From Perkinsus olseni (Eukaryota): DNA of 64,000 nt. This document shows, piece by piece, positions 16,893 through 27,147 of the stretch. Location of the stretch: positions 1 through 64,000 of the forward strand of contig JABANN010000044.1 of assembly GCA_013115125.1 (NCBI GenBank), given 5' to 3'. Under the pieces are notes generated by a model that ran no database searches, had not been told where the DNA came from, and worked only from the letters and a program-made list of their open reading frames with translations. The position numbers and the translations under genes are program-made. Each line of letters opens with the position of its first letter. Position 1 is the first letter of the stretch.

Positions 16893-19800
16893 TCATACAG
16901 CCACCTCTACCTCATACTCATGATCAGCTCCCATGAAACTGTCACTCATCAAACACCTGAGGCAACCAAAGATTCTCCATCAGGTCTCTCACAGCCCTTC
17001 CCTATTACAATGTATACGTGTACTTTCCGGGCTTCTCAGGTAGTCTGAACTGCAGCTTAGCCTTCACTTGCGCCTTATTGATGGTCACACGTCGGATGGC
17101 GACGAGACTGTCCTTCATACCAGCAACCAACCACCAAGATTCCTCCTTCTCTCCAGGGTAATACCTGTTGTCAATCAACATCCCAAGGTAAAGGTCTGCT
17201 ACTATCAACATAACCTACTTAGCGTACACAGGTACGAATCCGGCAGTCTTATCGATCACGCCAAGATCGCCATCTCGCTCCAAAACCACCGGAATCTGAC
17301 GCGAAGAAGAGCCAATAAATATCCGAAGGATTCAACACGGAAAGCAAGCGTACTCCATAACACCAGAATAGCCGCGGAAAAGTCACAACCGGCACTCCTT
17401 AACTAACTAGTTGCGGGCAGTTCACATGGTCATGCAGAAGATGACCAGTCCGCAGGGTCCACGCAGGAGGATCCCCTTTCCCCTCAATGGTCCTTACTGT
17501 AACGGTCTTGCCATCCTTAGATTTATTGACCTTATACTCCATGTTAATGCTCGGGAACTGGTTACACGCCTGGGCCACTTCGGCCACTTGGGACTCGGAA
17601 AGGTTGCGGAACAGTTTATTGCGCTTGTCATCATCCAAGTCCAAAATATCAAGCACATCTTCAACCTAAGATACAACCATGAATCCGAAAATCGCATCGC
17701 TCCGCCGTCATTTTTACCTTCATCTTCTTAGCCTCATCCACTATGTCCTGGTTAATGTACGGCAACTGCATCAGCAGGCTGGTCTCAGGTCCCATCGCCT
17801 GGACGACCATTTGCGACAGTTCCATGGCACGAAGAGCCACTCGGTACCTAGTCAATATCGATCATCAGAGCGCGCGCTAAACCATCCCCCATTGCATACT
17901 ACCATTCATGACTCGCCACCACATCCACCATGGCCTGGATGAGCCTAGTGGAGTTGAGTAGTATCGTACGTTGATCCGCGGCAAGATCAGATCCCGGAAG
18001 TCTCTGTCTTGCCAGATGGGCGTGCAGGAGTATGACACACTTAACCATCGGGTCTCCTTGCTTCAGCTTACTAGTCTCAACCGGTACCTTCAAAATCAAC
18101 AATCAGAGCACACTATTATTCTAGCACGGATGCCAAATCGATCAAAATGGACTACATCCGACCTCAAGATACCCCTCACCTTGAGACGCTCAGCCAGAGC
18201 CCTGAGTGTTCCCTCTTCACCAGGTCGGACAGGAATCGACTCGAACTCAGTCGCTCCGCAAAGAGCTTCCACCAACGCACGACGCTTGCTCGTCCGAGTG
18301 ATGTTGCGTGAGAAGATCTCAATAGTAGATGGCCGGGTGTAGTAATATCTATGAAACGGTTGATCGATTTCAACAATCACTACACACACCCCAAAACCTA
18401 CGCTGCAACCATGCCGAGGTTCGTGCTGCTAAGGGTGATCTCATCTTCGCCAATTTCCACGCAGCCAGTCTGAGCCAGGGCATCTGCTGTCGACTCGATG
18501 ATCTCAGAAAGGAAGTCAGATATATCTTGCGGTGACACACCCTAAAAAATAAATAAAAATCGCTTCGCTCCGCCCTCGTCGTATTGTCATATCCCCACCT
18601 GTAGGGAGTAGTAATTCGGGTTGCGAGTGATTCTCCTGTAGAAGAAGGTCCATGTGAGCCAATCCACAGCGTCTTGCTTGTTCTCGATCGTACCAGACAC
18701 AACCTGAGATTAAAAATCACCACATCCCCCCCTCAGAACGAGAAGGCCTCGGGACACGGACGAGGGGCAGAGCGTTCCGGCATTCGATCGATACATCAAT
18801 GAACCATCGGGCAACCTACTCTCACTATGACCACGGACTAGGAGTAAGATAGTGAGACCCAAGAACCCACCTCAGCATTGAGATGATCCGTCAATTTCTG
18901 ATCCAACTGCGACTCCACCGGCATGGGCTCGTATATGAACTTCTTATAGTAATCCTTCTTGGTGGTAGGGCACAGCAGTGCGCATCTGCGAGGAACAATC
19001 AGCTTCGCTCCGCTGCAGCCCTTTGAAGATTTACGTTGCATGATCATCTATGCCCGGTCGGCCAGCGATAGACATCATCTCCACCACATCAGCAACATCG
19101 TAGTCGACATAACGGCGTTGTCTGATAAAGAAATGCACAATGCTGGGATCGAACCCACGGCCTCCACAACAGCGGTACCTCGCATCGTATTTAACAGTGT
19201 CCATCACCACAACCATCCTGCAGCCTGCATTACGTGTCTGCGGCAGTAGACCCCAAGCAAGGTCCACCGTCACTACCATAATCTAAAGAGAAACACCTCA
19301 GCCCGGAATCGAACCCACAACCTTTCTTACTTGTACAGCACCGCTCTCGAATAGCTCCATTAGACCATCTCTCTCCCTACTGCTCAGACCTTCATGCATG
19401 TACCCAATGCCATGCATCAAGGACGTCACCAATCCCCGCTCTCGAGTCTTCCATCCATACTCCTTAGCCAGACCCTCTATATGCTCCTTCATCGCCGTTT
19501 CAGACAAGTGACGGAATCTGCACGCATGCACAACAAGATACGCCCAGAAAAGAGCATCAATGGGGTCGTTTAATAAACCAATTCGGAGACTCTGAAGCTA
19601 TTCTTTTTTTCCGCATTTCACGAGTAATTATCAATTTCAGAATTGCTTTATTGAACAGGGGGATCATCAAACGGTTCGTTTCACAGGCCTATCACCGCAA
19701 CTACCTGTCAGGGCTGTTATCAGCAGTAGCTTGAAGCATGAGATCAGCGGCCACCATCCGACTCTGTCGGCGGTCGCCAACAAATACCACAACAGGCTGA

Positions 19801-25800: not shown

Positions 25801-27147
25801 GGGAGTGGATCTTCTGGACGGGCAGGTCGGTACTCGAGGTGTTCCTCTTCTTCGAGGCCGGTCCATCATCGGCGTCTTCGCCCTCCCCGCCAGCGCGAAT
25901 ACCGGTATCATCATCGTCATCGCCTACACGGATGTTATATGATGCTGATGCCGTGGATCGAACCCGAGGCCTATCTTATACGAGCCCATCACCCTAACTA
26001 CTACCCCGCTTTCTCCTTCTTCCCCCCGTTTCCATCCTGTCATCAGCATCCGAGTCTTCCGAGTCACTGCTAGATTCATCAGACACTTCATCAGCGTAGA
26101 GCATATCATCATCACCCCCCATCTCTGATCGGAAGGACGTCACCCATCTCGCGCACACCTTCTCCAACTACCATCGTTCTCATCATCCTCATCGAAAGTC
26201 ACAGCCACACCGGCCGGATCGTCGGCTGCAGCACCGGCCAGGAGGGCCGCATCTACCTCCTCACCGCCGCCGGCCTCCGCTCCACCAGCATCATCCTCAT
26301 CCACGGCAAAGTCGTGTATTTGCTGGGATAGTCTCAGGAGCTGGGTATAGAGCTCCGGGGTCAAGGATCGTGGCGGGAGAACCTAATCCACCAACACTCG
26401 CCGTTGCAGTGATCAATGATCGCCACAGCGGTACTACCTCCTCCACATTCTTCTGCTTTGACGAGTCCTTCTGATCAGACTTGAGGGCCATGAGGATCTC
26501 ATGTGCTGCCTCTCTCAATACTGTACTCGTCTCCCCAACCAACACGGTAGACAACACAGACAGCATCTCATCGTAAGGTCTCTCCGATGCTCGAGACTTG
26601 GGCCTACCGAAGACCAACCATCATCCAACCCCAACCTCCGTCCATCCTTACCTATATATATTCTCCCCAGCCTCGTCCACTGTGAGGACCGTCTCTCCCT
26701 TAGTAATATCTATACCTTTCCTACGTTTGTGGAGGCCCTTGTCCCCTCCAGCTTCGGTAACGGCTTTCCTGCATCGAAGACCATCATTCACGGGGCGGGC
26801 TCAGGCGTGGCTGGTCCTTACACATGTCGCCGCTTGGCAGCGAGGGCGGCCTCTGGCTTTGGCTTGGTCTTCAGCACCTTATCGCCCATACTGTGCATCG
26901 TGTGGTACCGCAATGTCTCCGGCTCGCCTAAGCAACTCTCATAGTTCTCATACGCGCAGGCTACGATCTACTATGGTTGCATCTCAACCTTTTTTGTATC
27001 TTCACAGGTGAAGCTAAAGATCCTTCTTCCCTGTAGTACCAGTGGGCTCATTAGCCAGATGACTTCCTCCGCCCGGGTCCCTCTGCAGGACCAAGTTACT
27101 GTTCTCCTTATATTCGAATCGCTTGAAACGTTCGAACTCCTCAGCCA
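16893..27147 (-). CDS. BRR2: U5 snRNP 200 kDa helicase Brr2 (two helicase cassettes, two Sec63 domains), many short introns
   Basis: Start [86 protein letters not shown]; second cassette APANSGK/ADDLH; end [20 protein letters not shown]. Confidence 0.97.
19140..19165 (-). other. Intronic tRNA variable-loop + T-arm (B-box) fragment
   Basis: AGGCC-GTGGG-TTCGATC-CCAGC. Confidence 0.7.
19302..19325 (-). other. Intronic tRNA variable-loop + T-arm (B-box) fragment
   Basis: AGGTT-GTGGG-TTCGATT-CCGGG. Confidence 0.7.
21567..21614 (+). other. tRNA 3'-half-like sequence filling a BRR2 intron (antisense to the gene)
   Basis: TGGGCATTAACAACCCG-A-AGATC-CCGGG-TTCGAGT-CCCAG-AGTCTGCA inside intron 21561-21624; no 5' half present. 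Confidence 0.7.

Follow-up and report, generated by a model that had tools for sequence, protein, structure and literature searches.

The minus strand of a 64,000-nucleotide (nt) stretch of the Perkinsus olseni genome (contig JABANN010000044.1 of assembly GCA_013115125.1, positions 1 to 64,000; hereafter the window) carries at 16893-27148 the coding region of BRR2, the 200 kDa helicase of the U5 small nuclear ribonucleoprotein. We observed that this gene is divided into 45 exons by 44 GT-AG introns and that seven of these introns contain a short module resembling the variable loop and T-arm of a transfer RNA (tRNA). The introns sum to 3473 nt. The coding sequence of 6783 nt has no internal stops; it begins with a start codon at 27148 (-) and yields an RNA-supported model protein of 2260 residues.

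The gene model was obtained by protein-guided spliced alignment of the U520 protein of Perkinsus marinus (P0001) onto the minus strand, which gave 38 GT-AG introns, and a small gene finder trained on those 38 introns carried it to the start codon. In a neighbouring gene that lay outside the training, the gene finder found five of six RNA-supported introns. Two corrections were made by hand: the gene-finder intron 25975-26171 (197 nt) was split into 26125-26171 and 25924-26004, which flank an acidic exon, and one gene-finder intron past the BRR2 stop codon was removed. The derived protein is 96.7% identical to P. marinus U520 over 1976 residues, and the largest exon of the region, 23266-24018 (-), shows 98% identity to U520/BRR2 of P. 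marinus ATCC 50983 (P0001). The public P. marinus protein (1979 residues) begins at residue 288 of our model, and its N-terminus is apparently short of six exons, including the acidic exon 26005-26124 (region 25924-27148, minus strand).

As RNA evidence we used contigs of three public runs mapped to 12000-31999. These contained 60 splice joints, and the 15 that were listed all read CT..AC on the plus strand. Nine of the 15 listed joints, lying between 17165 and 19034, correspond to BRR2 model introns; none of the seven module introns is among the listed joints. Additionally, the share of exon sequence per 667-nt bin agreed to within 0.003 with X2 run coverage, taken as the ratio of bin depth to the contig depth of 16.8, in 15 of 15 bins (17336-27340), including all six bins that contain the module introns. 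For bin 26007-26673 the observed value was 0.774, against 0.775 under the corrected model and 0.598 under the uncorrected gene-finder version. Spliced alignment to P. marinus U520 supports six of the seven module introns. The seventh (25924-26004) was placed by hand and keeps the frame open; the RNA coverage of bins 25340-26006 and 26007-26673 supports it.

The modules are given below as variable loop, 5' stem, T-loop and 3' stem; loop mismatches are counted against TTCRANY, and an exact B-box means GGTTCRANYC. Two of them occupy adjacent introns. Module 1, at 19142-19163 (-) in the 57-nt intron 19122-19178, reads AGGCC GTGGG TTCGATC CCAGC, with an exact B-box and four of five stem pairs, and module 2, at 19302-19323 (-) in the 48-nt intron 19283-19330, reads AGGTT GTGGG TTCGATT CCGGG, with an exact B-box and three of five pairs. 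Module 3 (GGGTC CCGAG TACGAAT CGTGG; one loop mismatch, four of five pairs) lies at 20061-20082 (-) in the 92-nt intron 20037-20128. All three are sense with respect to BRR2.

Two modules are antisense. Module 4 (AGATC CCGGG TTCGAGT CCCAG; exact B-box, four of five pairs) occupies 21585-21606 (+) in the 64-nt intron 21561-21624. Module 5 (AGGCC CCAGG TTCTAAC CCTAC; one loop mismatch, three of five pairs) is found at 24324-24345 (+) in the 77-nt intron 24273-24349, where its 3' stem adjoins the 5' splice site. The remaining two are again sense: module 6 at 24961-24982 (-) in the 64-nt intron 24935-24998 (TGGTC GCGGG TTCAGTT CCTGG; one loop mismatch, four of five pairs) and module 7 at 25951-25972 (-) in the 81-nt intron 25924-26004 (AGGCC TCGGG TTCGATC CACGG; exact B-box, four of five pairs).

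These findings agree with a preliminary description of this DNA, which had reported seven such modules in seven BRR2 introns, in both orientations and lacking a 5' half or A-box. Its coordinates and strands were all correct, each module sits in a separate intron (five sense, two antisense), and ARAGORN and Rfam found no 5' half or A-box. It had also named an eighth site near 43246 (-). At 43246-43262 (-) we indeed observed a T-arm with five of five stem pairs (GTGGG TTCGACT CTCGC), but it is without the variable-loop consensus and the surrounding intron, 43157-43466, is predicted by the gene finder only, so that its membership is doubtful. A possible further member lies on the BRR2 strand at 27393-27409 (-), about 250 nt 5' of the start codon. 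It has an exact B-box (GGTTCGAATCC) and four of five stem pairs and is likewise without the variable-loop consensus.

The likeness to tRNA extends past the B-box. The five bases 5' of the stem follow the class I variable-loop pattern G-G-pyrimidine-C: in the ungapped alignment of the seven modules (A1), column 2 is G in 7/7, column 3 is G in 6/7, column 4 is a pyrimidine in 7/7 and column 5 is C in 6/7. The B-box recognized by TFIIIC does not extend over these positions. Stem pairing in the tRNA register reaches 26 of 35 cells (74.3%); shifting the partner by one to three columns lowers this to 22.9-60%. For the three outer stem pairs, which the B-box leaves free, 14 of 21 cells are paired (binomial p 0.006-0.019). 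The T-loop pattern is exact in four modules and has one mismatch in the other three, and the pair G53:C61 is found in all seven. Both the consensus of the variable loop and the pairing of the hairpin in register thus suggest descent from tRNA.

What lies 3' of the T-arm has the order expected in a tRNA gene for the 3' acceptor strand, the discriminator and the terminator, but is only suggestive. Seven mixed bases are followed by a purine at position 73 in six of seven copies, and the next four bases include at least three T in five of seven copies, antisense module 4 among them. There are two apparent subtypes, whose 3' strands end in TGC-A or in GGT-G.

The pairing data give no sign of compensatory change. 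When the 3' partners were reshuffled among the copies, 72.2% of cells were still paired, compared with 74.3% in the true arrangement, and 218 of 500 reshufflings were as high. Thus one ancestral hairpin followed by random decay explains the pairing, and neither several source tRNAs nor selection on an RNA stem is called for.

No complete tRNA was recovered. ARAGORN found no tRNA gene in the window, Rfam gave no tRNA match there at the gathering score or at E up to 10, and module 7 submitted alone to Rfam as a truncated tRNA had no tRNA match either; a tRNA gene or pseudogene cloverleaf was therefore rejected. A search by eye for an anticodon arm or 5' acceptor strand 5' of the modules yielded partial pairings within the chance level of about 30 trial positions, the best of them 7/7 in intron 20037-20128, and this candidate was also set aside.

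We compared the abundance of the modules with chance expectation. In the whole window GGTTCRANYC occurs 11 times against 1.70 expected, and none of 100 shuffles reached 11. A scan against dinucleotide-shuffled controls, the check named in the preliminary description, gave four exact B-boxes in the BRR2 introns (3473 nt), where 0.0675 would be expected, with none of 2000 shuffles reaching four (the maximum was two); in the 6783 nt of BRR2 exons there was none. At a loose setting, allowing one loop mismatch and requiring at least three stem pairs, 10 of 44 introns matched against 2.03 expected, again a value that none of 2000 shuffles equalled. About two of these ten are expected by chance, and background probably accounts for the three extra loose matches, which lie in introns 17296-17497, 18349-18401 and 20548-20608.

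Across the whole window the loose setting gave 62 matches against 59.3 expected, i.e., no enrichment, so that modules 3, 5 and 6 are each singly within chance. It is the variable-loop likeness that ties these three weaker modules to the set. A count of 8-mers over the 44 introns placed GGGTTCGA among the top shared words, in four introns; taken alone this result is borderline, since 10 of 200 shuffles also reached four.

As a control set we used 80 BRR2 loci of other eukaryotes from metagenome contigs (1,120,760 nt). They contained 28 B-box matches, or 0.025 per kb, which is the chance rate, compared with 1.15 per kb in the BRR2 introns studied here. ARAGORN found no tRNA gene in the 60 control loci that were scanned. 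The set has no close Perkinsus relative; the closest locus is 73% identical in exon and has no introns, and 51 of the 80 align to BRR2 in one piece, which means that they have few or no introns.

The numbers above bear on the simplest alternative, namely that the resemblance arose by chance and was picked out post hoc from introns that are CpG-tolerant and rich in G+T. The flat loose-setting count over the window, the two or so introns in 44 expected to hold a loose match, the borderline word count and five window matches that turned out to be coding coincidences (below) would all fit this. It would leave unexplained why no intron shuffle in 2000 exceeded two exact B-boxes, why the variable-loop consensus and the in-register pairing add further, independent likenesses, and why the control loci stay at 0.025 per kb while the introns reach 1.15. 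We therefore regard chance as highly improbable.

Within the window the modules are restricted to BRR2. The gene finder predicts 91 introns outside this gene (17,378 nt, five of them RNA-confirmed). They hold three exact B-boxes and 12 loose matches, where about 16 loose matches are expected by chance (scaled from the window), and none of the matches shows the variable-loop consensus. Because these 91 introns are at background, the modules belong, in the window, to BRR2 and not to introns generally. The suggestion of the preliminary description that a dispersed code runs through the introns was thus not borne out.

Additionally, a profile of the seven modules found no further non-coding copy at E < 0.9. 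Several other T-arm-like matches were rejected. Those at 47296, 49047 and 50844 (all +), at 52522 and at 52444 (-) are coding coincidences in a repeated protein motif: their host is the motif LGFELMPKID with its flank, repeated four times in a minus-strand gene, in which the first three are paralogous copies and 52522 a diverged fourth. The match at 28172 overlaps a 5' splice site, and that at 62111 is a palindrome within coding sequence.

The region that hosts the five coding matches contains, at about 47000-53400 (-), four diverged copies of a protein segment (..Y.W.L.G.PW....G...V......G.....W..GFELM...D..GKL.....) in long open frames. No direct repeats of at least 40 nt were found in 46000-55000. 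The four copies suggest either a gene with repeated domains or a family of tandem genes.

The confinement to one gene raises the possibility that a single T-arm intron multiplied within BRR2, by reverse splicing into the same transcript or by conversion between introns. Seven modules in 3.47 kb of BRR2 introns, compared with none or one in 17.4 kb of others, would be in keeping with it, and so would the neighbouring positions of modules 1 and 2, the five sense copies and the lack of compensatory change, a single ancestral hairpin being sufficient for the pairing. Reverse splicing, however, could not have produced the two antisense copies, one of which has an exact B-box, and the sense bias is not significant at so few copies. 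Nor can the introns be aligned outside the block, which speaks against recent whole-intron copying. We consider this route unlikely.

The extent of the similarity was studied by all-against-all local alignment of the 44 introns. This recovered three families of short words, GCGGAGCGAAGCG, GGAGTGGTATG and the T-arm block, with T-arm intron pairs scoring 11.5-13.5 against shuffle maxima of 11-15. No similarity between introns was found past about 22-35 nt, and the sequences 5' of the modules gave no mutual alignment. Agreement with the column majority in A1 falls from about 77% in columns 1-22 to about 54% in columns 23-35 (13 columns). Likeness over short words only means that there was no recent whole-intron copy and that there is no SINE-like body (SINE, short interspersed nuclear element).

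The first two words recur elsewhere. GCGGAGCGAAGCG, the top common word of the BRR2 introns, has 19 matches in the window with at most two mismatches, against 1.75 expected and with none of 100 shuffles as high. Five are sense in BRR2 introns (17693, 18561, 19001, 19858 and 20751 (-)) and 14 lie at other places in both orientations, e.g., 7358, 8992, 15648, 42963, 43794 and 44338; their flanks are unrelated. The word contains GCGAAGC, a very stable DNA mini-hairpin. GGAGTGGTATG recurs at 20950-20961(-), 25181-25192(-), 21967-21978(+), 16014-16025(-) and 57848-57859(-), so that three BRR2 introns contain it, as does one intron of the neighbouring gene that RNA confirms. About 24 of 26 bases are common to the copies at 21967 and 57848 (TGCGAAAGGAGTGGTATG..GCAT), and the likeness ends outside the word. 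Its core resembles the D-loop of a tRNA; a D-stem is absent.

We then considered RNA folding and splicing signals. The T-arm hairpin formed in none of the seven minimum-energy folds of the module introns, which used other pairings, so that a stable RNA hairpin is unsupported. For six of them the fold is not better than that of shuffled sequence (z -0.90 to +1.18). The 64-nt intron 24935-24998 (-) is a separate observation: it folds at -25.2 kcal/mol (z -4.13; 0 of 200 shuffles as good) into two hairpins that take up almost the whole intron, neither of them the T-arm hairpin.

Among the branch-region words, GATG was found in 20, TGAT in 16 and CGAT in 14 of the 44 introns, and 30 of 44 have a YGAY word within the range of 10-45 nt from the 3' splice site, most often at 10-21 nt. 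Modules 1, 2 and 7, all sense, have the CGAT of the T-loop as their sole YGAY word, at -27, -26 and -34, and it is possible, judging from these positions, that the T-loop serves as a branch site. In sense copies the T-run also overlaps the polypyrimidine tract.

Such words are what one would expect if splicing had selected an RNA hairpin that presents a branch-site-like CGAT in its loop and resembles a T-arm through convergence. The sole CGAT of modules 1, 2 and 7 and the frequency of related words in the other introns agree with that idea. It is hard to reconcile with minimum-energy folds in which the hairpin never appears and with the absence of covariation; most YGAY words also lie closer to the 3' splice site than the T-loops do, and neither the antisense copies nor the variable-loop consensus is explained. 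We find it quite unlikely.

A different question is whether the modules function today as B-box-only TFIIIC sites spread over one gene and affecting chromatin or BRR2 transcription. Such a role is a matter of what the modules do now and could go together with descent from tRNA. The B-box is exact in four intronic modules and in the site that lies about 250 nt 5' of the start codon, together spanning 8.3 kb, and the modules are seen in both orientations. A short conserved block with unrelated flanks looks like a binding site, and two other words of the window behave alike. There is also a precedent in the extra-TFIIIC sites of Caenorhabditis elegans, as described in the accessible part of PMC6950938.

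Binding to a B-box, however, needs neither conservation of the variable loop nor the hairpin register, three of the seven copies are altered at loop positions fixed by TTCRANY, and the module is absent from the 91 other predicted introns. Additionally, the extra-TFIIIC sites of yeast and of human lie near promoters and not in short introns (PMC6950938, in the portion available). On the present sequences a working array of this kind would be doubtful as the explanation of the modules, though the four copies with an intact B-box could bind TFIIIC.

The reading we tentatively favour, with a probability of roughly 0.45, is that the modules descend from a tRNA-like gene of the RNA polymerase III type, whose 3' part was inserted as DNA in copies that have since decayed. 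What makes this descent most likely is the pattern of the variable loop, together with the register of the hairpin and the occurrence of both orientations. Each copy would comprise the variable loop and T-arm, mostly with an acceptor-strand-like 3' stretch, a purine and a T-rich run. Entry probably occurred by retroposition or by templated repair from a tRNA-like source, and some copying inside BRR2 may have followed; the copies would now be neutral relics.

That both orientations occur speaks for an origin as DNA. Most of the length of the 48-64-nt introns is tRNA-like, so that this stretch must have replaced or supplied the intron interior, and since the block with its 3' extension spans most of the 48- and 57-nt introns, it cannot have been a small late addition to an older intron of normal size. 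The preliminary description had proposed tRNA-derived fragments or a SINE as the origin. The fragments are the best-supported part of that proposal, owing to the variable loop and the register, while a SINE could not be confirmed: the modules have no A-box head and no alignable body or tail.

Several points weigh against descent from tRNA-gene relics. No 5' half, A-box, tail or target-site repeat was found around the modules (a target-site repeat would here be indistinguishable from the AG|GT splice consensus), and ARAGORN found no candidate source tRNA gene in the 64-kb window. The T-runs are no proof of a terminator, as splice signals at intron ends require them too. A family unseen in 91 other predicted introns is odd for a genome-wide repeat. 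The 8-mer result taken alone is borderline, and the introns show no similarity past the block. The sharp edge of the block fits selection as well as it fits a relic. Together, the restriction to BRR2 and the sharp edges are poorly explained by neutral debris, and this keeps three alternatives alive: TFIIIC sites, copying within the gene and a splicing element. Finally, if human BRR2 also has 45 exons, many of these introns are perhaps ancient and not born by insertion.

If the modules are only relics of tRNA-gene copies, one Perkinsus gene has received tRNA-like DNA in its very short introns again and again, which would add a little to present knowledge of intron sequence derived from repeats. 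A bolder extension is that a copy of about 35 nt from the 3' half of a tRNA-like gene constitutes an undescribed intron-building element. A copy landing in a transcribed gene would supply a branch-site-like T-loop and a T-run as polypyrimidine tract, and would thereby seed or rebuild a minimal spliceosomal intron, leaving an intact TFIIIC B-box. We think this quite improbable; if true, it would amount to a new source of spliceosomal introns in which the RNA polymerase III terminator and the T-loop double as splicing signals.

Two further features of the window stand apart from the modules. At 8049-8117 there is a near-perfect 69-nt palindromic hairpin, which scored 51.8 and 50.3 bits with Rfam mir-4524 on the two strands, compared with a gathering score of 68; it is probably not a mir-4524 microRNA. 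At 14558 and 16609, where two minus-strand genes have their 5' ends, X2 RNA contigs continue into TGAGCCAAG. Read on the gene strand, this is CTTGGCTCA, in agreement with the 3' portion of the Perkinsus spliced leader that has a TCTT middle, as given in the part of PMC9399869 available to us. Both positions look like trans-splice acceptor sites.

We found no published description of such modules in the literature on Perkinsus introns, introners, tRNA-derived sequence and TFIIIC (subscription journals and supplements lay outside the search). In the accessible text, a review of transposon-derived introns (PMC11282704) does not mention SINEs; it refers to tRNA six times, never in connection with an introner derived from tRNA. 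The accessible portions of a paper on Amoebophrya (PMC7789003) contain nothing on Perkinsus introns, and those of PMC9399869 cover, among Perkinsus intron and repeat topics, the spliced leader only.

Among known systems, introners resemble the BRR2 case in that a repeated sequence occupies many introns of an intron-rich protist, and in the shortest BRR2 introns the module makes up most of the intron, as in an introner (PMC11282704 and PMC7789003, as far as these sources were accessible). According to the same portions of these papers, introners differ in being near-identical whole introns, usually DNA transposons with terminal and target-site repeats, spread over many genes. The BRR2 introns have only a short block in common and belong to one gene. 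An introner element was rejected, as the likeness is limited to short words and the 91 other introns of the single 64-kb window examined are without the module.

SINEs derived from tRNAs, and tRNA pseudogene fragments, are similar in that tRNA-like sequence with decayed stems is scattered through non-coding DNA, in either orientation. In a SINE, however, A-box and B-box occur together, a body and a tail follow, and the copies can be aligned lengthwise. The modules are unlike SINEs in that their likeness is confined to about 22-35 nt, and in every case it is the tRNA's 5' part that is missing.

A lone B-box with no A-box and no tRNA gene recalls the extra-TFIIIC (ETC) sites of budding yeast and the chromosome-organizing clamp (COC) sites of fission yeast. 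These lie for the most part between genes or close to promoters, and what defines them is that TFIIIC binds while RNA polymerase III does not. PMC6950938 also names sites of both kinds. With regard to the B-box consensus itself, it is exact in four intronic modules and in the site at 27397. The BRR2 modules differ in lying within spliceosomal introns of 48-92 nt and in being known from sequence alone.

A further parallel is found in the extra-TFIIIC sites of C. elegans. In the consulted sections of PMC6950938 these are over-represented in introns and clustered, and an overlap with repeats is given for 44.6%; almost all of the repeats are of the CeRep3 class, suspected to consist of tRNA pseudogenes. 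Judged from those sections, the CeRep3 sites and the BRR2 modules are alike in being tRNA-pseudogene-like, rich in introns, clustered and not tRNA genes. The C. elegans sites have Box-A in 90% and Box-B in 87%, belong to an annotated repeat class and have measured TFIIIC binding (PMC6950938, same sections), whereas the BRR2 modules, seen at the sequence level, consist of the variable loop and T-arm only, lack an A-box and occur in one gene. If bound by TFIIIC, they would join C. elegans as a second example in which extra-TFIIIC sites are tRNA-like and intronic, and one from the Perkinsozoa, the sister group to dinoflagellates, in which the control of transcription is poorly understood.

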